Shown piece after piece: positions 11,573-57,035 of a stretch of 64,000 nt of DNA. The position numbers and the translations under genes are program-made. Below the pieces are notes generated by a model, which saw nothing but the letters and a program-made list of their open reading frames with translations, was not told the origin of the DNA and searched no databases. The DNA is from Candidatus Curtissbacteria bacterium RIFOXYA1_FULL_41_14 (GTDB lineage: Bacteria > Patescibacteriota > Microgenomatia > Curtissbacterales > GWA2-41-24). The DNA lies in assembly GCA_001775095.1 (NCBI GenBank), contig MFCA01000029.1, positions 55,975 to 119,974 of the forward strand, written 5' to 3'. Positions within the stretch are counted from its first letter, which is position 1; every line of letters starts with the position of its first letter.

Positions 11573-12361
11573 TTAAGAATGTGCCGCAACAAAAGCGATG
11601 GCAAGTGAATCATTTGGAACAACTAAAATTGACCAATCAGTCAGAGAAAGAGCTTTTGCTCTTTCCAATGCCTTTCCAACAAGATTAACGGAAAAACTAT
11701 TTCCTGATTCTGGTCTAATTTCAACATCTTTTCGACCTACTCCCTGCTTGAATCCAGTTTCAAGAACTTTTACAACTGCTTCTTTACTGGCCCATCTGAT
11801 CGCTAATTCTTGAGGATCCTCCTGGCTATCATCAACTTCTCTCTCAGAAAAAACAATAGCATAGAGTCGGTTTCTACTTTTTTCCATTAATTCTCTAAAT
11901 CGGTCATTTGATGTAACATCCACACCGATTTGCAGCGATCCTTGGAAATTTTCAGGTATCGCGGCTGCAAATCCAATTGCTATTCCCTCATCATGGCTGA
12001 TACTTAGTCTATACTGCGAAAACCCTTTATTCCGAATTATATCTTTAGATTCTTCTCCTATTTGCACAACAGGTTGTCCTGTTTCTGACGGATGGATGTT
12101 AATGTCGGTCCAGTTTAATCCAGTACCCACTGCCCTCATTAAAGCAACTTTAGCGGCAAACCTACCGGCGAGACGATTGAGTCTGTTTTTACAATATAAA
12201 AGCTCTTCCTCAGTAAGATACCGTGCAAGAGAATGATCGGGAAGATTAAGATACCCCACGCCATAAACCCACAAATTTACTCCCTCCCCCAATCTGAATT
12301 CATGGGATAAGCGTGTGTTTAAATACGCAGAAATTGGAGAGAATCTTGGTACTTCTCGCAT
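11573..12361 (-). CDS. 4'-phosphopantetheinyl transferase-like protein, tandem AcpS-like halves (first half degenerate)
   Basis: Half 1: RFAAKVALMRAVGTGL and LSISHDEGIAIGFAAA, resembling AcpS RFAVKEAAAKAFGTGI / VTLADERHYACATVI but lacking GxDxxE and the KEA Glu. Half 2: IGVDV...WASKEAVVKVLETG intact. Confidence 0.5.
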   Translation of the reverse strand: MREVPRFSPISAYLNTRLSHEFRLGEGVNLWVYGVGYLNLPDHSLARYLTEEELLYCKNRLNRLAGRFAAKVALMRAVGTGLNWTDINIHPSETGQPVVQIGEESKDIIRNKGFSQYRLSISHDEGIAIGFAAAIPENFQGSLQIGVDVTSNDRFRELMEKSRNRLYAIVFSEREVDDSQEDPQELAIRWASKEAVVKVLETGFKQGVGRKDVEIRPESGNSFSVNLVGKALERAKALSLTDWSILVVPNDSLAIAFVAAHS

Positions 12362-31910: not shown

Positions 31911-32031
31911 AAATTTACAATTTGAAATTTTTACTTTTTTATTGAAATCTAAAATTTAAATTTTGATAAGAAAATATTTTAATAAAATATTTTGAAACAT
32001 TCAAAATTGAATGAAAATTTAAAATTGAAAA

Positions 32032-34080: not shown

Positions 34081-35727
34081 TTACTGATCAAACCAACCTG
34101 TACTGTTATTCATTACAACAACTTCAATATTGCCAAAAGGTGCATTTTTCACCTCATGATATTTTAAAACAGCATATCGTTTGTAAAAATCTTCAGTCTC
34201 CGGCGTAAAGTCATGAATGACGAAGGAAACTACAGTTGGAGGATGTTTTTGGGCAACAGGAGTTGTTCCATAAAGGTAAGCGAAATTTGGGTCGACATAG
34301 CTCTTAACCGGTTCTTGGCCAAAAACGGCAAACAAATACCGATATCCTGAGTACCTCCAACAAGTTGAAAGTGAATCCAGAGAAAATGGTTTATCCCCTA
34401 CTTGCTGCATAGTAAATTCGATCGCCTGCCTTTTATAAGTCAGGCCCATGCTGTTTTTAGCATTTAAGAGTTTATTGAGATTAAAGACTATAAAAAGACC
34501 AAGTACTAAAAGCCACAATTTTTTGGGGAGTAAACTTACGATGTTGGCAAAAATCAGAAGAAAAAGTGCGAATAAACCTGCTATGTAATGCTCAAAAATA
34601 TCAGCTCTAAAAATAGTTCCATACAGCTGGATACCAACAAGATATAGAATCACAAGTATAGCAATAAGCCGCCAACCTACATTTTCTTGATTTTTCCCGA
34701 GAGCCCAGACGACAAAACCAATGATAGAAATCGATGAGAGAAATACTAGAATAGGAGGAATTACTTGATATTTTTCTTTGACAAACGCCTGGCAATATGA
34801 ATATTGCTTAGCTATTTGATTGTCATCGAATGTATAAATAAGACGAGTAAAGGCTCGAGGGAAAAGTGAAGAATTATTAATGAATTTTTGCATTTCAAAT
34901 CCGGGGTCGTTCCTCCCCTGCTTCCAGAACCCGACAACTGGTTTTGTATTGGCAAAGTTGTGCCTAAGGTCAAATAGGATAAGAGGCAGAAATGAGAAAG
35001 TAATTAGTCCAAGCGCAAAAAAAGTACTCTTTTTAATCGGCAGCTTGTAGATTATCCAAGCCAAAATTGCAAGCACAAGAAAAACTAAGTTAGATGGATC
35101 AGCATGAATACTAAGAGCAATGGTTAGACCTAAGAAGTAAATGTATTTATCATTTAGATTTTTCGTCCTGAGATTGCTTCGCGGAGTATATCCCGAGATT
35201 CTTCGAGAGGCTCGCAATGACATCGAAGGGCTCAGAATGACAGCGTGAGAGTGGATAATTTTGTAAAGACAAAAGACAACTATCAGCGAAACTAGCGGAC
35301 CCCAATAAAGCGCCCACAGATGTCGATCATAAACATTGGCAAGATATGAAAATGCCCAGAAAATAGCAGCTGTCAGAGCAATCTTTTTGGAACTAAATAC
35401 TTTGCCAACTACAAATATCATAAAAGTAGTGGCCATAGCTATGATAGCTGAAGCGTAACCCCAGGCAATTGGATTAAGTTTTCCCAAAAATAAAATGGCC
35501 GAATAAAACCAATAAAAATATGGCCCAAGGTGAAAATTAAAAGGCGTTACCCCGCCTATCAGCGGAATATGTTTCCAGAGAATTAATCGCCTTCCAACAA
35601 ATGCAGGAATTGATTCGTCATAAGTGAAATAAAAAAGTTCTTCAAGCTTTATTACCCTAAGAATAAATGTAATAACAATAAGTAGAATAACCGGCCAAAA
35701 TTTGGCGATTTTGCTCATTTTTTGCAA
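34081..35727 (-). CDS. GT-C membrane glycosyltransferase, ArnT/PMT_2-like, carrying an in-frame repeat-derived insert
   Basis: Loop FYFTYDESIPAFVGRRL (DE motif), about 13 TM helices. Segment HSHAVILSPSMSLRASRRISGYTPRSNLRT is encoded by repeat 35163-35249. Confidence 0.55.
   Translation of the reverse strand: MQKMSKIAKFWPVILLIVITFILRVIKLEELFYFTYDESIPAFVGRRLILWKHIPLIGGVTPFNFHLGPYFYWFYSAILFLGKLNPIAWGYASAIIAMATTFMIFVVGKVFSSKKIALTAAIFWAFSYLANVYDRHLWALYWGPLVSLIVVFCLYKIIHSHAVILSPSMSLRASRRISGYTPRSNLRTKNLNDKYIYFLGLTIALSIHADPSNLVFLVLAILAWIIYKLPIKKSTFFALGLITFSFLPLILFDLRHNFANTKPVVGFWKQGRNDPGFEMQKFINNSSLFPRAFTRLIYTFDDNQIAKQYSYCQAFVKEKYQVIPPILVFLSSISIIGFVVWALGKNQENVGWRLIAILVILYLVGIQLYGTIFRADIFEHYIAGLFALFLLIFANIVSLLPKKLWLLVLGLFIVFNLNKLLNAKNSMGLTYKRQAIEFTMQQVGDKPFSLDSLSTCWRYSGYRYLFAVFGQEPVKSYVDPNFAYLYGTTPVAQKHPPTVVSFVIHDFTPETEDFYKRYAVLKYHEVKNAPFGNIEVVVMNNSTGWFDQ
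35163..35249. repeat. family B element inserted in-frame in GT-C gene
   Basis: Minus-sense ctgtcattctgagcccttcgatgtcattgcgagcctctcgaagaatctcgggat...ctcaggacga. Contains GTCATTCTGAG and CCTTCGA cores shared with other family B copies. Confidence 0.55.
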
Positions 35728-40362: not shown

Positions 40363-41036
40363 ACTGCAAAGATAGATAGTCCAACTGGAGGCTCTATTCT
40401 TTTTTCCAGGATAGTAATAAGGCCCATTATTTTATCGAAGATTCCAATTTGTCCAGCAGAGACCATTTTTCTTTTAAAGATTTTTCCGGCCACAAACCAG
40501 CCTAACAATCCGAACATATTCAGGTATTTAATTGATATTATTGTAAAGTGATTATTCTCAAGCAGATTCTTAAGTGAGTCTTTTGAGTATCTTCGGAAGT
40601 GATTGATTTCTTTATCCATCTCTCCATATGCCCACTGATGGGCCGGCACTAGAATTATCAGTTTCCCTCTGTGGCTTAACAAATTGTACAAATTCAAAAG
40701 AGCTTTGTCATCATTTTTTATATGTTCCAAAACGTTAAAACACATTATTGTTTTAAATTTTTTCTTATTAAAAAAATATATGGCTTGTTCAATATCTCCG
40801 TACCCGGCTTTTTCTTTTGGAAGGATTTTTTGAAGGTTTGTGGCTAATTCCAGGTCTTGGTCAATTGCGTAAACCAAATAGTCTTTAAGAAGCAACTCCA
40901 CAAATGCACCATTGCCGGCTCCCGCGTCAAGAATCGGGCTTTTGAGGTGATTTTTAACTTGAGTGACAAGCCATTGATTATATCTCTTGGCGGTCGTTTT
41001 CATAATATCAAGGGATTTTTTGCCTCTATATTCCAT
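40347..41036 (-). CDS. class I SAM-dependent methyltransferase
   Basis: ILDAGAGNGAF motif I, FKTIMCFNVLEHI, HRGKLIILVP. Confidence 0.75.
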   Translation of the reverse strand: MEYRGKKSLDIMKTTAKRYNQWLVTQVKNHLKSPILDAGAGNGAFVELLLKDYLVYAIDQDLELATNLQKILPKEKAGYGDIEQAIYFFNKKKFKTIMCFNVLEHIKNDDKALLNLYNLLSHRGKLIILVPAHQWAYGEMDKEINHFRRYSKDSLKNLLENNHFTIISIKYLNMFGLLGWFVAGKIFKRKMVSAGQIGIFDKIMGLITILEKRIEPPVGLSIFAVCQKK

Positions 41037-42600
41037 TTAATTTCCTGACTGTGATTGCGCCGTTAATATCTATCTCTTTAGTTAATTTATAGCTGTCGAA
41101 GTTTTTGAGCCAGGAATCTTTGGTGTAAAATTCATTTTGCTCGCTGTTTTCGAGAATTAAGTAAATTGTCGAGGCGATTTTGCCGTTTGAATATAATTCT
41201 TTATTCCTGACATATCGAGGTTGATTAGGTAAATAAGCAAAATCCACAGGTAAGCCTTTTTTAAATCTTACTCCCTGCCACCAAAATAAATATTGATAGG
41301 AAAAATCGTAAATAGGCGGTGTATAAACATAGACAGAAAACGGTTTTCCTTGACTATCGTCGTAAATATACTCTATCGCCGCTAACTGATTGGAAAGTTG
41401 CGCCGGGTCGTTCTTCGCATTGGCAGTTCTTTCATCTTTAGCATAAGGAAAAATATTTAAACCCAGGAATAAAACCACGAAAACAACAGCCGCAGCTTTA
41501 TTTCTGATCCCGACAAGTGCATATACGATTAAAAAGGCCACAAAAATAAAAGTTCCGTACAAATACCAAGTTTTTATTTCTACGGTAATAAAGACCGAGA
41601 AAACTATAAAAATAATCAGCAGAGAAACAACATTTATTTTTAGTAAAATATGCAAATTTTTATCCCTATCAGTCTTGATAAAATGATAAAGTCCAAATCC
41701 GATTAACAAAAGTATCAGCAATGCAATAATATTGGATTGAGGAGAAACACTTTCCTTGAAAAGTTCAAAAAAGATACCGGCTCTATCTAAGATCCTTGGA
41801 AGGAACGGCAATTGCCCGGACAAAGATGGATTGTTCCCCGCAAAATATGCAAGCAAAGACCGCGTTTGAATAAAGTTATTGCGAAGTTCAAACAGAATTT
41901 GAGGGGTAAAGGGCAAGACATAAGCAAAAAAAGATATTGCGGCAATCTTAAATAATTTCCTTGTGCGGTAGAGTTTAAAGTAAAAAAAGATAAAGATGGG
42001 AATAAAAGTAAAAACAACAGCGGACGGAGGTTCTGTATGGTAAATCAGGCTCACTGACAAAAAAGATGCTGAAATAAACAAAGGATTTTTTGTGACAGCC
42101 AGGAATAAAAAATATATCATACAAAGAGTCAAAATAGGGGTAATATTAGCCGGGAAGGCAAAAAGAGAAAGATTGATCATTTGAGAACTAAAAAGAATAA
42201 TAATTGAGAAGATAAGGGCGTAAAACCGCGACAAATATTTATGAAACCAACAGTATGCTAAAAAACCTGTCAGTGAGAGTGAGAGTGAAACGGTAATAAC
42301 TGCAGACAGCGGATGGCCATTCGATAAGAAAAGGGGTATTGATAAAAAATAGTACCATAAAGGCCCAAAGTAGACACCCCAAATACTTGCAGCGGGACCA
42401 ATTAAAGTGGGTTCTTTATAGAAGACTATGTCTTTGGCCCAAAGCAAATCACGGCCCATGTCGTAGGCGAATGGTACCGAATCTCTAATGACTATAAGCA
42501 ATCTAAGTAAAAATGCAAGACCAGCAAGTAAGATGATCAATTCGCTCAATTCTAACAAATTCTTCCGCAAAACTGGTATATTTGGAAAGTTATGAAGCAA
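41026..42600 (-). CDS. polytopic membrane protein, GT-C-like (TTG start in track, start uncertain)
   Basis: About 13 TM helices. Loop FAYDMGRDLLWAKDIV. Genomic position next to GT2 and methyltransferase is like other GT-C sets here. Confidence 0.35.
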   Translation of the reverse strand: MLHNFPNIPVLRKNLLELSELIILLAGLAFLLRLLIVIRDSVPFAYDMGRDLLWAKDIVFYKEPTLIGPAASIWGVYFGPLWYYFLSIPLFLSNGHPLSAVITVSLSLSLTGFLAYCWFHKYLSRFYALIFSIIILFSSQMINLSLFAFPANITPILTLCMIYFLFLAVTKNPLFISASFLSVSLIYHTEPPSAVVFTFIPIFIFFYFKLYRTRKLFKIAAISFFAYVLPFTPQILFELRNNFIQTRSLLAYFAGNNPSLSGQLPFLPRILDRAGIFFELFKESVSPQSNIIALLILLLIGFGLYHFIKTDRDKNLHILLKINVVSLLIIFIVFSVFITVEIKTWYLYGTFIFVAFLIVYALVGIRNKAAAVVFVVLFLGLNIFPYAKDERTANAKNDPAQLSNQLAAIEYIYDDSQGKPFSVYVYTPPIYDFSYQYLFWWQGVRFKKGLPVDFAYLPNQPRYVRNKELYSNGKIASTIYLILENSEQNEFYTKDSWLKNFDSYKLTKEIDINGAITVRKLNGI

Positions 42601-43905
42601 AGATCCTGGAGGTTTGATATCTTTTTATTTTTCCTGTTGTTTTTCGCAAGCTTAATAATATTTAGAGATTCTTTATCTACTTTTTTTGTTCAGGACGATT
42701 TTATTTTAATCAACCAGTTCTCTCAAAATAGTCTTTTGCAGGATATCAAAAATGTTTTCGGCCTCCCGCAAGTTACCCATTGGCGTCCAATTCACAATTT
42801 ATTTTTTTTAATAGCCGGTAATATTTTTGACAAAAATTATGTCGGATATCATCTTCTGACTTTTCTTTTTCAAATCGGATCAGGCTTTTTAATCTATAAA
42901 GTTGTCCGAATGTTAACTAGAGATCATAAAAGCGGATTGATCGCTGGACTTATCTATACAATCCACCCTGCTCATTTTATCTCTCTTTTTTGGATTTCCG
43001 GTTCAGCAACGGTTATTGGATTTTTCTTTTTAGTTACTTCGTTCTATTGTTATTTTGTTGATAGAAAAATCGCATCTTTAATATTATATGTAATCTCTTT
43101 ACTTGCTTCTGAAGCAATGGTAGTCGGTCTGGCAATATTTACATCTTATGAATTTTTATTCAAAAAAGAAAAAACTGATAAGTTTTTATTAACAATAACT
43201 GGAATTATGTCGGTAATTTTTCTGATAATAAGGTTTGTCTTTTTTACCCCGAAAGTGACTATTGATGTTTATCAACTTGAGTTATCCGCTAAAGTTCTTA
43301 ACGCTATAAAATATTATCTTTTAAGGACAGCCGGATTTGCAGAAGCATCTGGAGATAAAATCGTCTCTCTCATACTTTTTGGCTGGCTGACTTTGATTAT
43401 TTTATTGCTATTCAAAAGTTTGAACAAAAAACAAAATATTAACCTGTTGATATTTTCAATCGTCACGATTATTGCGGGATTTTCCCCATTTATTCTAATT
43501 CCTTCCCATCTTTCTCCACACTACATGAATGTTTCGATATTTGGTTTTGCAATAATAATCGGGCTAGCACTAAAGCAGTTAAGGCCGGTGACGTCTTTTG
43601 TATTTTTGTTAATATTTTTAGGGATTTCTATCTACAATATCAATTTGACGAAAAGTAATAACTGGGTTTTCAAAAGGGCTGACTTAGCAAAGGCTTACGT
43701 CGAACAAATTGAGAAAGAAAATTCCCTTCCGGAAAGTAAACTCGTTTTTGCAGACAATAAAATGTCAACTTCACAAGAGGCTTATATCGCACTGGGAACT
43801 GGCGAGGCAATAAAATTTTGGTTTAAAGATAAAAATTACAGGATGTGTTTTACGTTTTTTGAAAACTGTGATTTTAGCCAAAATAAAATTTTTATTTTAG
43901 ACTAG
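42592..43905 (+). CDS. polytopic membrane protein, GT-C-like (QDD motif)
   Basis: Loop FFVQDDFILINQ...HWRPIHNLFF, then about 10 TM helices. One of only two plus-strand genes inside the minus-strand block. Confidence 0.35.
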   Translation: MKQRSWRFDIFLFFLLFFASLIIFRDSLSTFFVQDDFILINQFSQNSLLQDIKNVFGLPQVTHWRPIHNLFFLIAGNIFDKNYVGYHLLTFLFQIGSGFLIYKVVRMLTRDHKSGLIAGLIYTIHPAHFISLFWISGSATVIGFFFLVTSFYCYFVDRKIASLILYVISLLASEAMVVGLAIFTSYEFLFKKEKTDKFLLTITGIMSVIFLIIRFVFFTPKVTIDVYQLELSAKVLNAIKYYLLRTAGFAEASGDKIVSLILFGWLTLIILLLFKSLNKKQNINLLIFSIVTIIAGFSPFILIPSHLSPHYMNVSIFGFAIIIGLALKQLRPVTSFVFLLIFLGISIYNINLTKSNNWVFKRADLAKAYVEQIEKENSLPESKLVFADNKMSTSQEAYIALGTGEAIKFWFKDKNYRMCFTFFENCDFSQNKIFILD

Positions 43906-45306: not shown

Positions 45307-46869
45307 TTATTGAAAAATTCTCTTCCTAAAAGCTACCAATATTAGCGAGACAAGAGTGGAAGTTAAAGTGGAAAAATTTGCGATTTTTCTAACTGGTGAT
45401 TCTTCAAAGAAAACATCTACAGATCTTTTGCCGGGTGCAAGGTTGAAACTGATTAATCCGTCTTCCTGATAAAAACTGTGTTTTTTACCATCGACCTTTA
45501 CGTTCCATCCCGGGAAATATAATTTCCTTACGATTAAATTGTCGTCTTGATTTAATTTCGCATCGAAGGAAATTCGATAAGGATTACTTTTTACATTCAT
45601 AATCTCTACTTGATTTGAATGATCAATTAGAGGTCTTTGGCTGTATGTTTTATTATTAGTCCAAATAGTGTCAAATTCGTTTTGAGTAGTGAGGGTTGGT
45701 GTTGGAATGCTGTGGACTACTTGATTTGGCTTGATGAAGTAATGGCGAGAGGTGTAAATTGCCAAGGCGATTATAAAAATAGCAAGTAATTTTTTATGTT
45801 TCACTTTATTTATTAGGTGAACGCTTAAGAATGCTGATGAGATGAGCGCAATTGAAAGAAATCTCCACGGGTAAAGCACGTAGTCAAGAGGTTTAATGTT
45901 TTCCCAAAGCAGTCTTGATGACGGATGGATTAAAAAGATCGAGACTAAAAAAACAGAAATAAGCAGAGTTGTGTCAGTATTTCTCTTTTTAATCCATAAT
46001 GCCAAGCTAAATACAAAAATTATTGAGGACGTTATCCCAATTTGAAAGGGTGTACCAATATTCACTCCTTCCCCGGGTATTCTTAAGATCTGGAATATGT
46101 TCAAGAAATGACCTTTATAAAGTTCCAGCAAGTTCTGGTCAAATTTTAAGAAATTTTTTTCAAATACTGCCGGCATCCACTGAAAAGAAGACATTAAGAT
46201 TCCCAAGAGCACTGAGAGGATTATTATTTTAATTGTTTTTATTCCTGGCTTCATAATAAATACAAAGTATAGAAAGTAAAATGGTATAAAGATAAAAAAG
46301 ATTACCGGGTGAGAAGTTACAAGTCCGAACGTCGCAATTGCCAATAAAAAAAATCCAATACCTTTATTCTTAATAATTAGGTGAAGGGAAAATAAGAACA
46401 TAACAGAAAATAATACGGCTGTTGATTCTCCAAGTGATGCTCTGGAATAAAGATTAGCGAATCTATAAGGAAGATAGCTGAAAACTAAGGCTCCTGTTAA
46501 ACTTGCAATGTTTGATGAGATATTTTTGAACAGGAAAAAAGCGAAAATACCGCTTAACAAAAAAGTAACCGATAAAACTGATTTAAAAGCTAAAGTCGAA
46601 TTATTACTTATTTGCATAAAAATTTCTGCAAGATAATACGGTAGCTGATAATTGACAACAAACAAGGGGTAGCCAATACCGTTTAAAATCGTTGGGGCGA
46701 GTCTGGGAGGAACTTGGCCAAGATCAATACTTTGATGAAACTGGTCAATTCTCGCTATATGATATAGTCCATCATGGCTTGGAAAGATTGGGCTAGCAAG
46801 TAAAAGATATTGCGATGGGAGAAGGAGAATTAAAAATATTATTAAATATTTGAATGTTTTTAGGTCCAT
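45307..46869 (-). CDS. polytopic membrane glycosyltransferase-like protein with YfhO-like C-terminal domain
   Basis: Loop SHDGLYHIARIDQF...GIGYPLFVVNYQLPYYL. C-terminal extracytoplasmic region with YFPGWNVKVDGK motif. Confidence 0.4.
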   Translation of the reverse strand: MDLKTFKYLIIFLILLLPSQYLLLASPIFPSHDGLYHIARIDQFHQSIDLGQVPPRLAPTILNGIGYPLFVVNYQLPYYLAEIFMQISNNSTLAFKSVLSVTFLLSGIFAFFLFKNISSNIASLTGALVFSYLPYRFANLYSRASLGESTAVLFSVMFLFSLHLIIKNKGIGFFLLAIATFGLVTSHPVIFFIFIPFYFLYFVFIMKPGIKTIKIIILSVLLGILMSSFQWMPAVFEKNFLKFDQNLLELYKGHFLNIFQILRIPGEGVNIGTPFQIGITSSIIFVFSLALWIKKRNTDTTLLISVFLVSIFLIHPSSRLLWENIKPLDYVLYPWRFLSIALISSAFLSVHLINKVKHKKLLAIFIIALAIYTSRHYFIKPNQVVHSIPTPTLTTQNEFDTIWTNNKTYSQRPLIDHSNQVEIMNVKSNPYRISFDAKLNQDDNLIVRKLYFPGWNVKVDGKKHSFYQEDGLISFNLAPGKRSVDVFFEESPVRKIANFSTLTSTLVSLILVAFRKRIFQ

Positions 46870-48314
46870 TGTTATTTGCTAGAATGATAAAAGATAAAAT
46901 GACGACTTACAAGAACAAAACAGATTCCCATGTTCTTGAGGCCGTGATTCTTTCTCCATTGCTTAAGATTTACCACGTAAAACCTGGAATAAATTATTTA
47001 TTAACAGCGATTTTTTTACTTATGGGTATTTTAAACCCCGTAAATAACAACTCAGTTGATCTGTCTATAGGCTTTTTTACCTTTGGATTCGCATCCTTTC
47101 TTATTCTAGATTTTAAATTCAAACCTTGGTCTGTAATTCTATTTTCGGTAAGTGGATCAATGATTTTTTGGCTAATAAAAGATTTCAATTATTTAACTTT
47201 TTTGTCCTCAACTTGCGGAATTCTAGCCGCTTTTTTAATTAATAGATTTAGATTGGTCAATTTTGCAATCTGGGTTTTGATTATTTCCTTTTTATTGGCC
47301 TCTTGGTTTACCAGTAAAAACTTAAGAACTATTCTGGACAGCGATTTATCTGGATATGCTTACAACAATGATCCAGGAACTTTTTTAAAAACTTATTTTT
47401 TGATTGAGCGGAATGTAAATTATTATGATGCCTACCAACAAGCTTTTCTTGGAAGATTTGGCTCAAGTATCATACCTTCAGATATTTGGGGATGGCGATT
47501 GCCAACGAGTTTCATGTTGTGGAAGTTTTTACCAGGCTCCTCAGCTCTCTCGATTTATTATCTTTATTTAATGCTGGCTGCGAGTGTTCTTTACGTCTCT
47601 TTCAAAATCGGGAGTCACTACTTGGGATCCATCTCTGGTTTACTTTCTAGTTATCTTATATTTCCTTATTTGCATTATGGAGCAAGAGACATAATGTTTT
47701 TAATCACCGAGTGGTGGTCTATCTCATTCTTTATCTTAGGAATATATTTTTTGATTTATAGAAAACTTTTTCTTGCCATACTTTTATTTTCATTAACCTT
47801 AATGACAAGAGAAATTTATATATTACCACTAGGTCTGATGTTTATTTACGCATTCTTACTTAAAAGAAGAATTGTTCCAGTATTTGCAATACCAATAGCT
47901 GCCTTTTCATTGTTATTTTTCTATCACATTTCGCGAGTAAATCTATATATTGATGCTTGGCAAACATTATTTACACCAAGAACCGTAACTGATGGATTAT
48001 TTTTTATACAGCAAACTTTGGCTTTTGCATCGGGGGAATATTTGTTTTACTATTTCAGACCATTCTCTATTTTTCTTTTATTTGCGATTGTTAGCTCTTT
48101 AATTCTGACTAGGATGAGGGGTTTTAGAGAAAACGGAGTAATCTGGATTCTTGCGTATTTACCCTTCCCTGTCTCTTATTTAAGATTTGGTACATTACCC
48201 TTCAACGATTATTGGGGAATTATGTATGTTCCGCTCGTAATCATCTTGACACCCGTTTCTTTGATGTTTTTTGAGAATCGGCGATTAGGAAAAGATTCTA
48301 CCCAGGGTGATTAA
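46854..48314 (+). CDS. polytopic membrane protein, unknown family
   Basis: About 12 TM helices, plus strand. Start uncertain. Confidence 0.3.
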   Translation: MFLGPLLFARMIKDKMTTYKNKTDSHVLEAVILSPLLKIYHVKPGINYLLTAIFLLMGILNPVNNNSVDLSIGFFTFGFASFLILDFKFKPWSVILFSVSGSMIFWLIKDFNYLTFLSSTCGILAAFLINRFRLVNFAIWVLIISFLLASWFTSKNLRTILDSDLSGYAYNNDPGTFLKTYFLIERNVNYYDAYQQAFLGRFGSSIIPSDIWGWRLPTSFMLWKFLPGSSALSIYYLYLMLAASVLYVSFKIGSHYLGSISGLLSSYLIFPYLHYGARDIMFLITEWWSISFFILGIYFLIYRKLFLAILLFSLTLMTREIYILPLGLMFIYAFLLKRRIVPVFAIPIAAFSLLFFYHISRVNLYIDAWQTLFTPRTVTDGLFFIQQTLAFASGEYLFYYFRPFSIFLLFAIVSSLILTRMRGFRENGVIWILAYLPFPVSYLRFGTLPFNDYWGIMYVPLVIILTPVSLMFFENRRLGKDSTQGD

Positions 48315-48986
48315 CTCAATTCCATTGACATATTTCGAATTTTTACTAAGTCGAAAAGGAAAATGGTTAGAGATTTTGTTCGCATAATCATCATTTGACA
48401 GCGCATATTTAAGCTCGGCTATAACAATGTTCCTGGAAGGTTCGCTCTTTTGGAAAAATGGGCTCAAGTGGGATAATAAACAATAATACTCAACTTCGGA
48501 ATCCTGAGTGATTCTGAAATTTGAATCTGCAGATACAAAATAACGACGCTTGTATCTATTGATAAGAACTGGAGACAAGACCGACAGCCCGGCTTTGACT
48601 TCTATGGGTATATTGGATCTTGCGAAAAGATCTTGCAGGTTTTCCTTTTTGAAGATTCTTTCGATATTAAACGATTTAAGTGGAAATGATAATTTTTTAT
48701 TGGCAAAACTTTTTTTAATTTTAATTTCCAGCATCGGTTTTTTTATAAGTCCTGTTAATTCCCCGTACCAACGTATTCTTATTTTGATTCGGTTATTATT
48801 GCCAAGTACAGCATCGTTATAATTATTTAGGTTTAAGGTGTCCAGATATAAACTGTTTACGTGGCGAGAAACAAAAGATTCTGAAAACATAGCAGGATGA
48901 AGTGTTATTATTGTCTCAACCTGCTTTTGAGTAAGATTATTTGCAAGAAATTTTCTTTCGTATCTATACTTAGAATCAAAATTCAT
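48285..48986 (-). CDS. VTC-domain (CYTH-like, polyphosphate-polymerase-domain) protein
   Basis: N-terminus YRYERKFL and size (~233 aa) typical of bacterial VTC-domain proteins. Lies in a cassette with DUF4956 and CotH genes. Confidence 0.5.
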   Translation of the reverse strand: MNFDSKYRYERKFLANNLTQKQVETIITLHPAMFSESFVSRHVNSLYLDTLNLNNYNDAVLGNNNRIKIRIRWYGELTGLIKKPMLEIKIKKSFANKKLSFPLKSFNIERIFKKENLQDLFARSNIPIEVKAGLSVLSPVLINRYKRRYFVSADSNFRITQDSEVEYYCLLSHLSPFFQKSEPSRNIVIAELKYALSNDDYANKISNHFPFRLSKNSKYVNGIELITLGRIFS

Positions 48987-49007
48987 TTCACATATCTGGC
49001 TTGTTAG

Positions 49008-50114
49008 TTATTTTCTTCTTGCTACAAAAGCAAAAACAAACACTGCCAAAAATAAGCCTGTCAAAAATCCGTACCAGTAACTATTATCTTTAAGTGCGGA
49101 ACTAATTACTGTTTTTGCTTGTAAAATATAGTTTCTATTATTTAACTCTTCAATATTTTTAAGATTATAAAACTCCAGATCTCTTAAATTATTTTTTTCA
49201 TTTAATGGGATTAGTTTGAAAGATACGTTGCCATTTTCTACATTTACCAGAATATAATTTTCGTCTTTAATTTCGCCCATTCCGGAGGAAATAAGGTTTA
49301 TGTTATCCAATTTTTCATAAAATGCTGGAATAGAATCAGGACGACCTCCCGTATCACCGGCTATGACATAAATATTCTTTGAATGATATTGTTGAAGTAG
49401 GGGAAAAATCTCTTCCCAGAAATTAGAATTTTCAAGTTCAGACCAGCCATACCTTGACCTGTTATTGGCAAATACTTGCCTATACTTTGGATTTTTGTTC
49501 CATAGAAGCTCATGAAAAAGGATGAATATGTTTTTTGGATTTTCACCGCTTTCTAGATTTTGCTTCAAAAAGTCCAGCTGATCTTGGTCAATCTTTAACT
49601 TATCTTTTTGGCTGTCGAGAATTATAAACCTCTCTGAACCGATATCGAATTTATAAAAAGTGGCGCCGAATTTTTGGTGCAAAAAATTGCTGCCGTAGTC
49701 TGAATTGTCGTGGTTGCCCAATGCAAAGTAAGCTAAAAGACCCAGCTTGTCGGTTTCTTCCTGCGCTTTTTGCCAGGCTTTTTCACTTGCAGGGGCTCTG
49801 AGAGCATCTCCTGTAAAAATCACAAATGCGATTTCCTTTTTTCCCAAAACATTAGATAGGTTATTCAAAAATTTTGGATATATGCCTAGGTTATTTCCGC
49901 TGTGAGATCCGTAAGCGTGGCCGGCAACGATAAAGGAGTATTTTTGGGGATCTACGGAAGGATTTGGAGACATTTGGGCAAGCGTTTGTCCTTGACATGT
50001 TACAAGGACAGTAAGAAGAGCGACGGAAAATATAAGAAGTAGCCTACTCAGTTTCATCGGGATATAATTTGATAAACACATTTTTCCCCTCCGCAGGTAT
50101 TTCTTTATAGTCAA
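49008..50114 (-). CDS. calcineurin-like metallophosphoesterase, secreted/membrane-anchored (true start probably MKLSRLL near 50054)
   Basis: FIVAGHAYGSH, FTGDA, ALGNHD phosphoesterase motifs. Signal peptide and C-terminal TM helix. Confidence 0.7.
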   Translation of the reverse strand: MTIKKYLRRGKMCLSNYIPMKLSRLLLIFSVALLTVLVTCQGQTLAQMSPNPSVDPQKYSFIVAGHAYGSHSGNNLGIYPKFLNNLSNVLGKKEIAFVIFTGDALRAPASEKAWQKAQEETDKLGLLAYFALGNHDNSDYGSNFLHQKFGATFYKFDIGSERFIILDSQKDKLKIDQDQLDFLKQNLESGENPKNIFILFHELLWNKNPKYRQVFANNRSRYGWSELENSNFWEEIFPLLQQYHSKNIYVIAGDTGGRPDSIPAFYEKLDNINLISSGMGEIKDENYILVNVENGNVSFKLIPLNEKNNLRDLEFYNLKNIEELNNRNYILQAKTVISSALKDNSYWYGFLTGLFLAVFVFAFVARRK

Positions 50115-52626
50115 CGTTTAGCGTAGAACCCTCCTCGACCAGATAAGGTGTAGAGGCGAAATTGTCCTTGAGGCCGGTCACGACCATGTGGGCCGTGCCG
50201 AACTGGAGTTTCTTCTGATAAACCGTAAGTCCCCAATCGGCACTTTTGATATTAATTCCCTTTACGTTAACGGTCGAGTTGTCCTTGGCGGCTATTCCTA
50301 TATAGGCTTTATTAATTTCGATTTCTTCACCTTGTACTCGGCTATTTTCCCCAACGCTAATGCCTTTGTCGCCGGCGTTTCTGATCTTTACCGCATTCAC
50401 GTTAACGTTACCTTCGGAAAAATCCATCGCATCGCCCGCGGTATTGGTGAATATGCTTTGGGAAATGGTGCCGCTTGCAAAATCCGTGTCGATTGCATCC
50501 GATGACGTATCGGTAAAGGCGGACCCGACAATTTCAAAATCGGACCTTATGATATTTAACGTGTCCTCGGAATTGTTACTTTTAAACAAACATTGATTTA
50601 TATAGACGGGAGACTGATAAAAAGTAACTGCACCCGTCAGTTCCCATCCGTTTTCCTTCGGATTTGTGAGATTTTCGAATACGACGTTTTCAAGATGCGA
50701 TTCGTTTTGCGCGTTTATCACTACTATCCCCTGCCCACTTTGATTCCCTGAACGGATAAAAATAGGTGACTGCTCCGACCCCTTAAACTGAAGGGGCGAG
50801 TAAGAGATGATTTTTGCTCCATTTGTTAAATTGACTGTTGTTTCTTCCGATAGTTCAAAAGTGTAGCCGCTGGGGATAATCAGGTTGCGGTCCAAATTCC
50901 AGGTTCCCCTTCTTGCGATAATTGTTTTTGAAGGATTATCGACAAATAAATTATCAAACTCTGCTACATTCGGGCCTTGAGACATCACGCGGTTTTGAAA
51001 AACCTCAGGAAAGAATGAGTAGGACGCCACGTCTGCTTCCTTTGGCGATTGAATACCTAAAATTTTGTAGTAAATCTTAGGGATAGTAATTTCTTCCTGT
51101 CTGGTACCCGTATTACCTCTTATAAAATCAAAAGTCTGATACTGGACTGTATTGTCGGGATTTCTCTCAGATAAGATAATTTTTTGTGTACCTTTGTAAG
51201 TACCGCCTTTGTATGAGACTTCCTCGACTTCTATCGGAAAAGGATAGAGACTACCGATGTCAATTTTCAGACCGTTTGTGTTTTCTTCCCTGAAATAGGC
51301 GTGAAGTGCTTTGGGCGGATTGAGAGAATCCTGGATATATTTCTGGTTTGTAAACAAACTGGCCTCCCTGAACTCGGATGCGGGAAACTCGCTATAGATG
51401 ATGTTTAAATTTTTCCCAAGATCGCTTTTCAAATCACCCAGCATTTTGTCGAAATAGTCGTCGCTCGCGTAAGAATTCAGATATTGAACATATCTTCTTA
51501 AAAATTCCGGGTCTTTAAAAAATAGCGATGTAAACCTTTTTTCGCGGTCGAAACCTTCGTTTACCCACCAGTTGCCTACGCGGGCGCTTTCATCCGAGAA
51601 CCTGTTAATCTCGGCAGAATATACTTCAAGTTTGTCTGTTATCGGATTGTAGTAGAATTTGACGTCGTTTGGATCAAATTCCAAAGAGGCAAACAAGGCC
51701 CTCAGTGCGAAAAATTTGCTAATGCTGTCAATGTCAAATGCCTGACTGACGCTTACCTTGCCGGCACGGAAGTCTTCCAAAAGTTTAATGGCCAAAACCG
51801 AGATCGGTTCGACGGCCTCAAAATTACTTGGTATAACCTCACTTTGCATTTCCTTGAATCCCCCGGTCATTCCCGTTGAGAAAATTTCTTGTCTCGTGTT
51901 TCCTCTTGCCCACTCTTCCAAAACCAGACTCTTGTCAAAACCGATTAAAGCCCCTTCCCTTCTTTTGTTATTTTCTACAAGAGCTTTGCTAAAATCTTCC
52001 TCTAAAACATAAATACCGTGATTCCTTCCGTTGATGGCCACTTTGACGAATTCAACTCTCGGGAATAGGAAGCCCTCCTTTTCCAATGCTTTGGCATAAA
52101 GCCATTCGTAAATATAATTTCTGGTTTTGGGGTGCATTATGGAAAAATCAGTCATACCCAAAATACTTTTTTGATTGGAGATTCTCATTTTTAAAGACCA
52201 TTTTTTATCGTCGTCCCAATGGTCAAATCCAGCTCCTTTGAGTCTTAATTTAATGTCATAGCTTTGTCCGTTGTAAGTAAGTTTTGCCGGCAAAAATTCG
52301 GTGTTTTGCTCAAGCAAGACACCGGCATTTACCGCTCTTTGTCTCTGGTCGGAAATCTTCTGATAATTGGTCCAATTAATGTCGATAGACAGTTCTTTTG
52401 GTTTTGCAAAAATGATGCCAGCAAGGTGCCTTTGTTGTTCAAGGGTAAATGTTTTAAGTTCGCTTAAATAGGGTCTTATTGGATCTGGCTTGATCAGAAT
52501 AACTAAAAAAAGAGACATCAGGGCAAGTATTAACGTAAAACCAATAATTTTAGCTTTTTTTTTCTTAAATAAACCAGTTTGTAAGAGGAAGAAATTCTCT
52601 TTCTTTGTTTCGGTTTTTATAAGCAT
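50044..52626 (-). CDS. CotH-family atypical kinase-like protein fused to C-terminal parallel beta-helix domain, N-terminal membrane anchor
   Basis: KKKKAKIIGFTLILALMSLFLVILI anchor. CotH-like region YDIKLRLKGAGFDHWDDDKKWSLKMR. C-terminal NxxGD/beta-helix-like repeats. 860 aa. Confidence 0.65.
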   Translation of the reverse strand: MLIKTETKKENFFLLQTGLFKKKKAKIIGFTLILALMSLFLVILIKPDPIRPYLSELKTFTLEQQRHLAGIIFAKPKELSIDINWTNYQKISDQRQRAVNAGVLLEQNTEFLPAKLTYNGQSYDIKLRLKGAGFDHWDDDKKWSLKMRISNQKSILGMTDFSIMHPKTRNYIYEWLYAKALEKEGFLFPRVEFVKVAINGRNHGIYVLEEDFSKALVENNKRREGALIGFDKSLVLEEWARGNTRQEIFSTGMTGGFKEMQSEVIPSNFEAVEPISVLAIKLLEDFRAGKVSVSQAFDIDSISKFFALRALFASLEFDPNDVKFYYNPITDKLEVYSAEINRFSDESARVGNWWVNEGFDREKRFTSLFFKDPEFLRRYVQYLNSYASDDYFDKMLGDLKSDLGKNLNIIYSEFPASEFREASLFTNQKYIQDSLNPPKALHAYFREENTNGLKIDIGSLYPFPIEVEEVSYKGGTYKGTQKIILSERNPDNTVQYQTFDFIRGNTGTRQEEITIPKIYYKILGIQSPKEADVASYSFFPEVFQNRVMSQGPNVAEFDNLFVDNPSKTIIARRGTWNLDRNLIIPSGYTFELSEETTVNLTNGAKIISYSPLQFKGSEQSPIFIRSGNQSGQGIVVINAQNESHLENVVFENLTNPKENGWELTGAVTFYQSPVYINQCLFKSNNSEDTLNIIRSDFEIVGSAFTDTSSDAIDTDFASGTISQSIFTNTAGDAMDFSEGNVNVNAVKIRNAGDKGISVGENSRVQGEEIEINKAYIGIAAKDNSTVNVKGINIKSADWGLTVYQKKLQFGTAHMVVTGLKDNFASTPYLVEEGSTLNVDYKEIPAEGKNVFIKLYPDETE

Positions 52627-53310
52627 TTAGAAAATACCTTTATTGTCCAGGAAGGAAATGCTGATATTTTTATCTAATTGACGCAGAGAAGATTTTGCTT
52701 TTTCAAGCTGGCCCAAGTTTTCTATCTCCAGGTTAAAAACAGCTTTCAATCCATCCGTACTTTCATCAAACCTTCTTAGATCAACTTTTGAGCTGGACTG
52801 TTTCAAAACAGCGATAATTTTTGACAGGTCGATTTTTTCCGATTTATTAGTCGATATCACCAGGTTAAGATTTTGGTTCTCAGAAGACTCGCGCTTAAAA
52901 TTTAGAATTAGTATCACCACGGTGATAAGCACAAACGCAACTAGTGTAATTTTTAACTGGTCTGCCCCCAAACCTAGGCCTATGCCAATTGTAAGGAATA
53001 AATAGGCTAATTCCTCCGGTTCTTTAATAGCAGCCCTGAACCTGACTATTGAAAGAGCACCTACCAAGCCTAGCGAGAGGGCAAGTGATGATTTTACCAC
53101 CGTAATAATTAGCGTTGTAGTCACCGCTAAAAGAACAAAATTTCTGGCAAATGTTTGTCTATTGGAAAGCGATTTCCCGTATTTTGTGTAAATAAGGCTC
53201 AAAATATAACCGAGAATTGCCGCTAGAATTAAATTAACTAAAAAGTTCAAAATTGGAATTTGAATATTCTGATTTGACAGGAAGTTTTGGATTAAAGTTT
53301 GCTGGTCCAT
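52627..53310 (-). CDS. DUF4956-family membrane protein
   Basis: Four TM helices with LGLVGALSIVRFRAAIKEPEELAYLFLTIGIGLGLGA signature of DUF4956. 227 aa. Confidence 0.6.
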   Translation of the reverse strand: MDQQTLIQNFLSNQNIQIPILNFLVNLILAAILGYILSLIYTKYGKSLSNRQTFARNFVLLAVTTTLIITVVKSSLALSLGLVGALSIVRFRAAIKEPEELAYLFLTIGIGLGLGADQLKITLVAFVLITVVILILNFKRESSENQNLNLVISTNKSEKIDLSKIIAVLKQSSSKVDLRRFDESTDGLKAVFNLEIENLGQLEKAKSSLRQLDKNISISFLDNKGIF

Positions 53311-53413
53311 ACAATTGATTTACAATTTAGATTTATACAGAAAATCCGGCAGCTTGTCAAAAAGAACATCTTCCTGGTTTTTAATTTATGTAAAAGATTG
53401 AGAAATTACTGGC

Positions 53414-55423: not shown

Positions 55424-56383
55424 ATGAAAATCATTCTTGTAACAGGCGGAGCAGGTTTCATCGGGTCTCACCTTTGCGAGCGATTAGTCGCGCGTGGTGA
55501 CACTGTCATCTGCCTTGATAATCTTTTGACCGGCTCACAGAAAAATATCGCTCATCTTATGAGTAAGAGAAACTTCTTTTTCTTTAACCATGATGTTACA
55601 AAACCATTTGTAAGCCGCAAATTTGCCAAGATTGATGAAATTTATCACCTAGCCTCCCCCGCTGATCCAAATGTAAATTCACCATTTTCATATATGGCTC
55701 ATCCTTTCGAAACAATGAAAGTTAATACCATCGGCACTTGGAATATGTGTGAGATAGCGTATAAATTTAAGGCAAAATTATCTTTTGCTTCAACCTCAGA
55801 AATCTATGGAGATCCTGAAGTTTCTCCTCAAAGCGAGAATTATCGAGGCAATGTTTCAACCATTGGGCCGAGATCTGTTTATGATGAGTCCAAGAGATTT
55901 GGTGAAACGATTGTTGCCGCATTTGTCAGCAAAAAGGATTTGGAGGGGCGGATTACCAGAATTTTTAATACCTATGGACCGAGAATGAATGTTAATGAGG
56001 GGAGGGCTGTTGTTAATTTTATAAAACAAGCTTTAACACAAAAACCAATCACTATCTTTGGTGACGGCAAACAGACAAGATCTTTCTGTTATATTGATGA
56101 CCAAGTCGAGGGGCAAATTTTAGCGATGGAAAAAGGTAAGCCTGGAGAAGTTTTTAATATCGGAAACGACGATGAGAGAACGATTCTGGAATTTGCCAAA
56201 ATCATCAAACAAATGACAAGAAGTCAGAGTAAAATAACTTTTTCTCAACGACTTCCCGAAGATGATCCCCATCAACGCAGGCCAGACATCAACAAGGCCA
56301 AAAAGGTATTGCAGTGGAAACCAAAAACTTCACTTGAGGAAGGGCTCTTCAAAACAATTAATTATTTTAAGGAAATTTTGTGA
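55424..56383 (+). CDS. UDP-glucuronate decarboxylase (UDP-xylose synthase-like)
   Basis: MKIILVTGGAGFIGSHL...IYHLASPA...TMKVNTIGTWNM closely parallels UXS1/ArnA-C family. Confidence 0.75.
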   Translation: MKIILVTGGAGFIGSHLCERLVARGDTVICLDNLLTGSQKNIAHLMSKRNFFFFNHDVTKPFVSRKFAKIDEIYHLASPADPNVNSPFSYMAHPFETMKVNTIGTWNMCEIAYKFKAKLSFASTSEIYGDPEVSPQSENYRGNVSTIGPRSVYDESKRFGETIVAAFVSKKDLEGRITRIFNTYGPRMNVNEGRAVVNFIKQALTQKPITIFGDGKQTRSFCYIDDQVEGQILAMEKGKPGEVFNIGNDDERTILEFAKIIKQMTRSQSKITFSQRLPEDDPHQRRPDINKAKKVLQWKPKTSLEEGLFKTINYFKEIL

Positions 56384-56387
56384 AACT

Positions 56388-57035
56388 ATGGTTTCCTCGA
56401 AAAGATTCCATGAAATTCTAAATCAGGTCCCTGCCGATTATTATGACCAGGGTGTAAAGACTAATCTTTTTCAAAAATATTGGCACCAGAAAAAATGGCG
56501 AACTCTTAAAAAATTCTTGAAGGAATCAGCAAAAGGATCTTTTCTGGACATTGGCTGTGCTGACGGCACAACTACTTTTCAAATCTATAAAAACTTTCCC
56601 AATCTTAAGATCACAGGACTTGATTATTATCGAAAAGCAATAGAATTTGCTCGCAGGACCAAACCCCAAATAAAATTTGTTATTGCCGATGTTCACAAAT
56701 TACCTTTTCCAAATAGAAGTTTTGATATTGTCAGCGCAATCGAAACACTCGAACATGTTCAAAATCCCCATGAAGCACTTGCCGAAATTAAAAGAGTTTT
56801 AAAACCTGGTGGTTTCTTAATAATAGTCCAGGATACCAACAGTCTTCTATTTCGGTCTATCTGGTGGTTATGGACTCGTTGGAAGGGCTCCGTATGGAAG
56901 AATAGTCATATAAACTGTATGGAATCAAAGAAGTTATTCAGAGTTCTCAGAAAGTCTGGATTCAAAATTGAACATTTCGAATACACTAATTTAAAAATGG
57001 AAGTATTTATAAAAGCTCAAAAACATAAATATTGA
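56388..57035 (+). CDS. class I SAM-dependent methyltransferase (start re-assigned; track ORF 56262 has spurious N-extension)
   Basis: FLDIGCADGTTT motif I, FDIVSAIETLEHV, KPGGFLII. Confidence 0.75.
   Translation: MVSSKRFHEILNQVPADYYDQGVKTNLFQKYWHQKKWRTLKKFLKESAKGSFLDIGCADGTTTFQIYKNFPNLKITGLDYYRKAIEFARRTKPQIKFVIADVHKLPFPNRSFDIVSAIETLEHVQNPHEALAEIKRVLKPGGFLIIVQDTNSLLFRSIWWLWTRWKGSVWKNSHINCMESKKLFRVLRKSGFKIEHFEYTNLKMEVFIKAQKHKY

Follow-up and report, generated by a model that had tools for sequence, protein, structure and literature searches.

The systems closest to the one considered here are the accessory genes of Gram-positive pel operons and the VTC complex of yeast. Contiguous with pel operons lie genes for CotH, a 'polyphosphate polymerase', DUF4956 and DUF4832 (Whitfield et al. 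2020; 10.1101/768473). In a table of Clostridium perfringens pathogenicity loci (NELoc-2), VTC-domain, membrane (bearing a 'tubulin/FtsZ' mis-annotation) and CotH genes adjoin a chitin-synthase-like gene. A 2025 study of Streptococcus intermedius, which deleted the genes one by one, found that loss of DUF4956 or CotH changed the amount of Pel and cut aggregation in sputum medium by half; its authors reported that the triad was not found outside Pel loci (PMC12345266). In yeast, the cytosolic synthesis of polyphosphate is coupled to translocation, and a metallophosphatase, Ppn2, lies beyond in the lumen. Here we describe a cassette of four tightly packed minus-strand genes, encoding DUF4956, CotH-like, metallophosphoesterase (MPE) and VTC proteins, at positions 48285-53310 of a 64,000-nucleotide stretch of DNA ('the window') from Candidatus Curtissbacteria, a lineage of the candidate phyla radiation (CPR).

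The Pel accessory cassette of S. intermedius (SIR_1594/1593/1592) and that of the window share three protein families, encoded in one operon beside polysaccharide genes, as well as a common arrangement: a secreted CotH, a cytoplasmic VTC protein and a multi-transmembrane (TM) DUF4956 whose C-terminal domain is cytoplasmic. The differences are considerable. There is no pel operon here: Pfam results, which cover 53 of the 57 window open reading frames (ORFs) of at least 120 residues, include no Pel-specific family, and there is no contiguity with pelDEA(DA)FG; the surrounding locus is instead of GT-C/GT2/GT4/Wzy/ABC-2 type, the first three denoting glycosyltransferase (GT) classes. Whereas the Pel accessory CotH has ~570 residues and an FN3 domain, the window CotH, of the ~870-residue form, has both a TM anchor and a beta-helix, and its catalytic Asp position is occupied by Glu (His in relatives), unlike that of CotH from Pel-type cassettes. 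The fourth gene encodes an MPE, predicted to be exported, rather than a DUF4832 glycoside hydrolase. The association of CotH, VTC and DUF4956, presented as the strongest candidate for an undescribed system in a preliminary description of this DNA, is already published for Gram-positive Pel loci (10.1101/768473; PMC12345266), and the system is biochemically uncharacterized rather than undescribed. The searchable literature returned only the Pel papers, the C. perfringens NELoc-2 table and expression tables, with no biochemical function for the cassette, in keeping with the earlier statement that none has been assigned. New in the window version are the long beta-helix CotH, its Glu/His active site, the added exported MPE, the non-Pel glycan context and the CPR host.

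The cassette and its DUF4956-VTC core

The four genes are as follows.

52627-53310, minus strand: DUF4956 membrane protein, 227 residues, first gene of the operon (PF16316, E=7.8e-17)
50044-52626, minus strand: CotH-fold protein, 860 residues, membrane-anchored, with a beta-sandwich and a right-handed beta-helix (PF08757)
49008-50057 (ORF to 50114, 368 residues), minus strand: divergent MPE, predicted to be exported and C-terminally anchored (PF00149)
48285-48986, minus strand: VTC (triphosphate tunnel) protein, 233 residues, stand-alone, predicted cytoplasmic, last gene of the operon (PF09359)

The cassette is confirmed as first observed. All four proteins score above the Pfam gathering cut-offs (VTC and DUF4956 comfortably, CotH moderately, Metallophos barely), which bears out the original domain calls, and the ORF coordinates and quoted peptides (SIVRFRAAIKEPEE, YDIKLRLKG...HWDDDKKWSLKMR, GDA...GNHD and YRYERKFL) are all present. 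The packing is operon-like: no nucleotides separate the DUF4956 and CotH genes, the MPE gene overlaps the 3' end of the CotH gene and 21 nucleotides lie between MPE and VTC. An ORF at 46854-48314 runs towards the VTC gene, and the two share 30 nucleotides at the 3' end of the latter. The same contig recurs in many metagenomes.

Comparative genomics establishes which of these genes belong together. In a VTC-anchored scan of genomes (8-sequence VTC alignment, one genome per species, 17 loci), 15 loci had DUF4956 beside VTC and 13 contained a long CotH, DUF4956-CotH-VTC being the commonest order. Among the hosts are Poribacteria, Bacteroidota, TA06, Deltaproteobacteria, Alphaproteobacteria, Pacearchaeota and Woesearchaeota. 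A DUF4956-anchored scan of metagenomes gave 80 loci, of which 32 extended 4 kb or more downstream and were counted as informative. Because VTC lies next to DUF4956 in 32 of these 32, whereas CotH is present in 22 and an MPE in four, DUF4956 and VTC form the obligate core, with CotH a frequent and MPE an occasional partner. Homologues are strongly co-localized, whereas dispersed copies alone would have spoken against the preliminary description; conserved synteny over ~100 unrelated loci excludes chance and contradicts the statement that the triad is confined to Pel loci.

A four-gene cassette occurs elsewhere as MPE-DUF4956-CotH-VTC (locus L025), a Cloacimonadota genome has CotH-MPE-VTC-MPE, and CotH and MPE are neighbours in further loci. 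The full triad is present in a culturable organism, Agaribacillus aureus BMA12 (L010). Archaeal cassettes or long CotH proteins were found in Pacearchaeota (L005), Woesearchaeota (L017), Nanoarchaeota (P0174) and Methanosarcina sp. Mfa9 (P0183); the archaeal proteins are 35-46% identical to those of CPR bacteria, and this level of identity implies transfer between domains of life. Taken together, these observations suggest that the cassette is a self-contained, horizontally mobile, membrane-spanning prokaryotic module built on VTC and DUF4956. Among the variants is an alternative order, MPE-CotH-VTC-DUF4956-CotH, in which two CotH paralogues flank the core (L056, L066 and L094). On a Cloacimonadales chromosome (OY762964.1, L020 10055-10568) the VTC gene is in two fragments, with no DUF4956 or CotH detected nearby, and is probably a decaying copy.

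The VTC protein matches PF09359 over profile positions 2-233 of 235 (E=2.6e-26; 93.1 bits versus a cut-off of 23) and belongs to a group of more than 1,100 stand-alone relatives of ~230 residues from many phyla, the nearest non-identical one sharing ~51% identity. No TM segment is evident from hydropathy, and there is no SPX domain. In a 25-sequence alignment, its predicted strands display alternating invariant basic and acidic residues (R8/E10/K12; R66/K68/R70/R72; E87/K89/K91; Y145/R147/Y149; R158/T160/D162; E191/K193). A profile of the family matches yeast Vtc2, Vtc4 and Vtc3 in the PDB, and the profile alignment places the invariant K12, R70/R72, Y145/R147 and R158 opposite Vtc4 K200, R264/R266, Y359/R361 and R373. 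The basic tunnel residues singled out for inspection in the preliminary description are conserved wherever they can be aligned. Structural comparison agrees: the best 13 PDB matches of the AlphaFold model (pLDDT 89) in Foldseek are all Vtc4, Vtc2 or Vtc3 (E~1e-11, versus E~1e-7 to 1e-6 for the hydrolytic tunnel enzymes ygiF and CyaB), so that hydrolase and cyclase tunnel enzymes score at least four orders of magnitude below the VTC subunits.

Hydrolytic tunnel enzymes are distinguished by a four-Glu acidic patch, whereas Vtc4 has basic residues that guide the growing chain (Martinez et al. 2015; PMC4641920). In the window protein, the patch position in the first strand is the basic R8, aligned to Vtc4 R196, and the last strand reads E191-x-K193, that is, E-x-K as opposed to the hydrolase E-x-E, with K193 judged from the strand pattern without residue-level alignment. 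Because two of the three patch positions that were mapped (R8 and K193) appear basic and the third (E10) is acidic, the alignments portray a protein that is mostly, but not wholly, Vtc4-like. The invariant E191, and the S217-K218 pair with which the C-terminal helix opens, lie at the places expected for the metal-binding E426 and the catalytic plug-helix K458 of Vtc4, and E191 and K218 are candidates for these roles.

The second core protein scores 62 bits against PF16316 (cut-off 30.6) and belongs to a family of 5,539 representative clusters (E<=1e-3). Its parts are listed below.

52897..53259, minus strand: TM region, residues 18-138, about five helices (hydropathy and Lys/Arg counts of the loops)
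53008..53097, minus strand: near-invariant core VKSSLALSLGLVGALSIVRFRAAIKEPEEL, residues 72-101, including the basic cytoplasmic loop RFRxxIKEPEE
52630..52896, minus strand: C-terminal soluble domain, residues 139-227, cytoplasmic by predicted topology

The core, whose consensus is VKSSLALSLGLVGALSIVRFRxAIKEPEEL, is near-invariant from Bacteroidota to DPANN archaea in alignments of 15-16 bacterial and archaeal sequences. Hydropathy makes five TM helices likelier than the four initially proposed. By hydropathy and the positive-inside rule, the predicted topology has the N-terminus outside and two basic loops (one being RFRxxIKEPEE) and the C-terminal ~90 residues inside; relatives in which DUF4956 is preceded by a signal peptide and a lectin-like domain lend this independent support. 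An N-terminal extension is found in ~12% of the top DUF4956 representatives. At three CotH-less loci (L034 5094-6530, L039 6200-7666 and L082 3279-4670), a PF06439 domain (3-keto-disaccharide hydrolase, or lectin/glucanase-like) precedes DUF4956 in the same ORF; that of L034 runs from a signal peptide through the PF06439 domain and a Pro/Glu/Gly-rich linker into DUF4956. The C-terminal domain of the S. intermedius homologue has been described as ACT-like (PMC12345266). As in MgtC/SapB proteins, a multi-TM N-terminal region is followed by a small cytoplasmic domain, and weak profile matches link the two families (PF02308, 15.8 bits versus a cut-off of 31.4, with sub-threshold matches in nine of 15 relatives); however, all such matches fall far below the cut-offs and the core motif is specific to DUF4956. 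Scanned against NCBIfam, the cassette gave only sub-threshold matches to MgtC and a cAMP-phosphodiesterase.

The CotH-fold protein and the metallophosphoesterase

The long CotH protein is modular, with the following regions.

52492..52626, minus strand: basic cytoplasmic tail and single N-terminal TM anchor, residues 1-45 (helix 23-45 in the model)
51322..52398, minus strand: CotH kinase-fold domain, residues ~77-435, predicted extracytoplasmic
51610..51681, minus strand: catalytic-loop region, residues 316-339 (hhalign against B. cereus CotH)
51022..51306, minus strand: beta-sandwich linker, residues 441-535 (assigned by DSSP from the AlphaFold model)
50092..50949, minus strand: right-handed parallel beta-helix, residues ~560-845 (AlphaFold and Foldseek)

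Identification of the kinase-fold domain relies on PF08757 (E=2.3e-7; 31.1 bits versus a cut-off of 23.8), a profile match to 5jd9 (E=1.6e-8) and the Foldseek match of the AlphaFold model (pLDDT 84.3) to Bacillus cereus CotH (5jda, E=2.8e-13, TM-score 0.66). The architecture recurs in 217 full-length homologues of ~870 residues, including some from Methanosarcina and Nanoarchaeota, which often carry PF13229 or PF12708. These family matches, together with the model and its Foldseek hits, uphold the C-terminal beta-helix proposed in the preliminary description. The window helix taken alone matches no Pfam family (its homologues carry PF13229), and none was found for the beta-sandwich. By Foldseek, the helix resembles tailspikes, pectate lyases, polygalacturonases, a fucoidan lyase and NosD; it carries an invariant acidic cluster (D688, D710, D713, D715, D735 and D782), and R128, K130, E184, N199 and E210 are invariant elsewhere in the protein. 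Hydropathy agrees with the Lys-rich tip and single TM helix noted earlier: eight Lys fall within the first 26 residues. Most of 39 homologues conserve an MxIK start, and all but three have 4-11 Lys/Arg in the first 30 residues. This tail may be a docking site for cytoplasmic components or polyphosphate.

The CotH kinase of the Bacillus spore coat (PDB 5JD9/5JDA) has the same atypical kinase fold. It acts on coat proteins with ATP, and its solved chains of 358-359 residues have no TM anchor or beta-helix, in contrast to the window protein, which is predicted to be anchored outside the membrane. The active sites also differ: relative to Bacillus CotH, D228 is replaced by Glu (His in relatives), N233 by Asp and D251 by Glu. 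The D228Q substitution inactivates Bacillus subtilis CotH (PMC7821199). The N233 column holds D321 here and N (29) or D (8) in relatives, while that of the metal-binding D251 holds E339 here and D (31) or E (8) in relatives, and is acidic throughout. As judged from the aligned columns, the active site of the long CotH clade is non-canonical; the CotH-fold domain is probably an enzyme, though not demonstrably a canonical CotH kinase.

The MPE matches PF00149 marginally (E=1.9e-4; 22.4 bits versus a cut-off of 21.5). Its start is probably M20 (MKLSRLLL..., MKLSRLLLIFSVALL, position 50057) rather than the TTG at 50114, a choice favoured because it results in a clean signal peptide; on identical contigs, gene callers give lengths of 321-357 residues. 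Hydropathy also agrees with the C-terminal helix previously recognized alongside the signal peptide.

49014..49079, minus strand: C-terminal TM anchor of the MPE, with an RRK tail (hydropathy)

Thirty-seven relatives, most of them already annotated with PF00149, combine a signal peptide with either a C-terminal TM anchor or PKD/T9SS sorting domains, and the family is therefore extracytoplasmic. This completes a predicted topology that agrees with the one first proposed, with VTC in the cytoplasm, DUF4956 in the membrane and CotH and MPE outside it.

Canonical metallophosphoesterases display the motifs DxH, GDxxDR, GNHD/E, H and GHxH. The family found here conserves AGH, GD, GNHD, HE and GDxG; in the window protein GD(103), GNHD(133-136) and H201 are present, motif I reads A64-G-H66 and motif V reads G253-D254-x-G. 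A phmmer search of the PDB with the MPE returned nothing, and the family profile gave a weak match to the phosphodiesterase GpdQ only, over motifs II-III. By its motifs, the MPE appears to be a divergent member of the superfamily.

Links between MPE proteins and the cassette take several forms. Other exported Metallophos proteins in cassettes bear a Tat signal (L029) or a signal peptide with a C-terminal anchor (L008). On the metagenome contig Ga0208980_10000156 (L079 2517-5186), one ORF fuses a CotH kinase-fold domain to this same type of divergent MPE domain, and the next ORF encodes the beta-sandwich and beta-helix. Further MPE copies lie in glycan loci that have a short CotH but no VTC (L024) or have neither (L027).

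A possible prokaryotic analogue of the yeast VTC machine

In its plan, the cassette recalls the yeast VTC complex (Vtc4 with Vtc1/2/3/5). Both have a tunnel-domain protein of the same Pfam family, with the closest fold and with key residues conserved where aligned, and in both, by prediction here, this enzyme works with a membrane protein and a metallophosphatase lies across the membrane. In the window, however, the putative catalytic domain is a separate soluble protein that has no SPX domain and retains E10, its activity being predicted; and the membrane part, a Vtc1-type three-TM domain in yeast, is the MgtC-like DUF4956. Ppn2, the endopolyphosphatase of the yeast vacuole lumen, is of the same metallophosphatase superfamily as the MPE and likewise lies on the side opposite the VTC catalytic domain, but no specific relationship in sequence was shown for the two, and motifs I and V of the MPE are non-canonical.

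We observed the order of the genes, the identities and folds of the domains, the conserved residues, the synteny and the fusions, and predicted the topology from sequence. The reading that we consider best, with a probability of about 0.45, is that the cassette is a prokaryotic analogue of the yeast machine, in which polyphosphate is made inside the cell, delivered outside and used or trimmed by CotH and MPE. By analogy with the VTC complex, the VTC protein would build inorganic polyphosphate from ATP. DUF4956 would be its membrane partner, passing the chain or phosphoryl groups to the outer face. There, the anchored CotH-fold protein, acting as a phosphotransferase, would grip a surface polymer through its beta-helix and spend the exported polyphosphate on (poly)phosphorylating a surface glycan or protein. 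The exported MPE would trim or recycle the chain, as lumenal Ppn2 does in yeast vacuoles. The polymerase activity, the export and the substrates of CotH and MPE we infer from the analogy.

Synthesis coupled to surface delivery is favoured because each part has a predicted membrane side and the architecture parallels the yeast machine. The effects on surface polysaccharide and aggregation of losing DUF4956 or CotH in S. intermedius also speak for it (PMC12345266). Outward partners recur, in the form of CotH proteins with an N-in anchor, exported MPEs, the CotH-MPE fusion of L079 and the lectin-like domain on DUF4956. The most explicit version, in which VTC and DUF4956 thread polyphosphate outward, CotH uses it in place of ATP on surface glycans or proteins and the MPE controls chain length, strikes us as rather unlikely. 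In such a scheme, CotH, its catalytic Asp replaced by His in most relatives (Glu here), would phosphorylate or polyphosphorylate its targets, possibly via a phospho-enzyme intermediate. The preliminary description had pictured a membrane-coupled phosphoryl-transfer or polyphosphate-like polymer module acting on the cell surface, and this interpretation is partly supported.

Several observations weigh against a polyphosphate machine of this kind. The VTC protein keeps the acidic E10 of the canonical ExExK motif, a residue that Vtc4 lacks, and a profile comparison of its C-terminal half with the PDB gave no residue-level alignment to Vtc4 E426/K458. The DUF4956 profile found nothing meaningful in the PDB, including no relation to the solved VTC subunits or the Vtc1-type channel domain, and the conduit role given to this protein is purely inferred. 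The catalytic Asp expected of CotH is E316 here and, in 39 relatives, H (35), N (2), E (1) or S (1), from hhalign and column counts; the MPE is without the first Asp of motif I, an invariant Ala taking its place, and without GHxH, which is replaced by GDxG. Because the CotH catalytic Asp and the MPE motif I Asp and GHxH are not conserved, the chemistry of the two surface enzymes may be altered or absent. CotH is absent from ~30% of DUF4956-VTC cores in the metagenome loci. Deletion of VTC in S. intermedius had no aggregation phenotype (PMC12345266), and polyphosphate synthesis by a prokaryotic VTC-domain protein is nowhere reported in the searchable literature.

Some of these points would suit a regulatory module, in which the VTC protein is a small-triphosphate hydrolase or cyclase, DUF4956 an MgtC-like ligand-binding regulator that tunes phosphate/ATP homeostasis or envelope synthesis, and CotH a surface kinase controlling the exopolymer. 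The retained E10 fits such a scheme, as does the weak MgtC similarity of DUF4956; hydrolysis is the activity of most tunnel enzymes that have been characterized, and one plant homologue has a Vtc4-like centre without being a polymerase (PMC4641920). The S. intermedius deletions, moreover, raise or lower Pel without abolishing it, that of VTC being silent (PMC12345266). Yet the VTC structure is closest to Vtc4 and two acidic-patch positions appear basic, the MgtC matches are sub-threshold, and a purely cytoplasmic signal would hardly account for the fusions that face outward or for an obligate association with exported enzymes. We regard a regulatory module as rather unlikely.

The core could alternatively be a membrane-tethered intracellular synthase, with VTC and DUF4956 maintaining a PPK-independent cytoplasmic polyphosphate store that would be useful in reduced genomes. 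CotH and MPE would then be independent surface enzymes, engaged for example in glycan or teichoic-like phosphate chemistry with another donor, and sharing only regulation with the core. Nine of the 32 informative cores are without CotH or MPE within the available sequence, MPE homologues occur in glycan loci without VTC/DUF4956 (L024 and L027), and the Pfam matches for the window include neither PPK nor PPX; the authors of the S. intermedius study themselves suggested that polyphosphate may remain cytoplasmic. Against this, the exported lectin-like domain on DUF4956 in the three CotH-less cores examined (L034, L039 and L082) suggests that the core faces outward, CotH lies between the two core genes across phyla (DUF4956-CotH-VTC order), and in yeast the polyphosphate that a VTC-type enzyme makes is toxic when cytosolic. 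An intracellular store seems to us an improbable explanation on this evidence. Lastly, an anti-phage defence or conflict system, or a fortuitous neighbourhood without joint function, would be in line with a patchy distribution across domains that suggests horizontal transfer, but is very hard to credit given that PADLOC models match none of the four cassette proteins, that there are no nuclease, NTPase or toxin domains and that the synteny is too conserved for chance.

Genomic setting and significance

A candidate promoter precedes the operon.

53332..53360, minus strand: sigma-70-like promoter candidate (TTGACA, 17-nucleotide spacer, TATAAA), read from the sequence, unverified

It lies 21 nucleotides upstream of the DUF4956 ATG, within a 103-nucleotide divergent intergenic region. 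A consensus promoter scan did not list this TTGACA-17-TATAAA element, and the region has no excess of promoter-like sites over shuffled sequence; nothing in the promoter and terminator scan rose above shuffle expectation. Rfam models matched no RNA family anywhere in the window.

Pfam scans mark ~5.5-64 kb of the window as one very large (~58-kb) glycan locus in a small-genome CPR bacterium; the cassette is embedded in it, as the preliminary description had it. The locus encodes an initiating sugar transferase (Bac_transf), a Wzy-like protein (Wzy_C), a flippase, an ABC-2 exporter, many GT2/GT4 enzymes, two DegT aminotransferases, several epimerases/dehydratases and methyltransferases, and at least eight polytopic GT-C-type proteins (PMT_2 x4, YfhO x2, PTPS_related and DUF2142). 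The suggestion that the cassette serves the surrounding glycan does not hold as a general feature. Two or more glycan genes lie nearby in only five of 31 long cassette loci, by a rough screen of low sensitivity. The surroundings vary from unrelated genes (an Anaerolineaceae chromosome) to SecDF and a flippase (a Pacearchaeote) or a GT2/GT4 cluster (KSB1). A constant link between cassette and glycan genes was considered and rejected on the basis of the Anaerolineaceae copy and the five glycan-rich loci in 31.

Four large window ORFs (437-548 residues) match no Pfam family: 34081-35727, 41026-42600, 42592-43905 and 46854-48314. Those whose sequence was read are hydrophobic and membrane-protein-like. 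A PHP-domain protein and a 4'-phosphopantetheinyl transferase are encoded inside the glycan locus (10784-11569 and 11573-12361); the former may be a CpsB-like phosphatase, that is, a further phospho-regulatory element. The GC content drops to 31% at 30001-32000, with strong positive GC and AT skew, in a segment where a YfhO gene ends and a PMT_2 gene lies. The methyltransferase ORF at 56262-57035 overlaps the preceding epimerase ORF (55424-56383) by 122 nucleotides, and its true start is probably an internal Met (MVSSKRF...).

Prokaryotes are held to make polyphosphate with PPK enzymes, VTC-type polymerases being regarded as eukaryotic. The widespread prokaryotic VTC and DUF4956 pair, found even in the minimal genomes of CPR bacteria and DPANN archaea, would change this PPK-only picture if the reading of the cassette as an analogue of the yeast machine is true. 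The module would then also offer a way for high-energy phosphate to reach the cell surface. On the more explicit and rather unlikely version, in which CotH uses polyphosphate in place of ATP, it would provide extracellular prokaryotic kinases with the phosphoryl donor that they need, and bacteria and archaea would have their first VTC-type polyphosphate polymerase and their first route of polyphosphate export. To the published association, our survey adds that the cassette is not restricted to Pel loci, that its core is DUF4956 and VTC, that its partners face outward and that the long CotH clade has, by alignment, a non-canonical active site; with these additions, the question becomes directly testable in culturable carriers.

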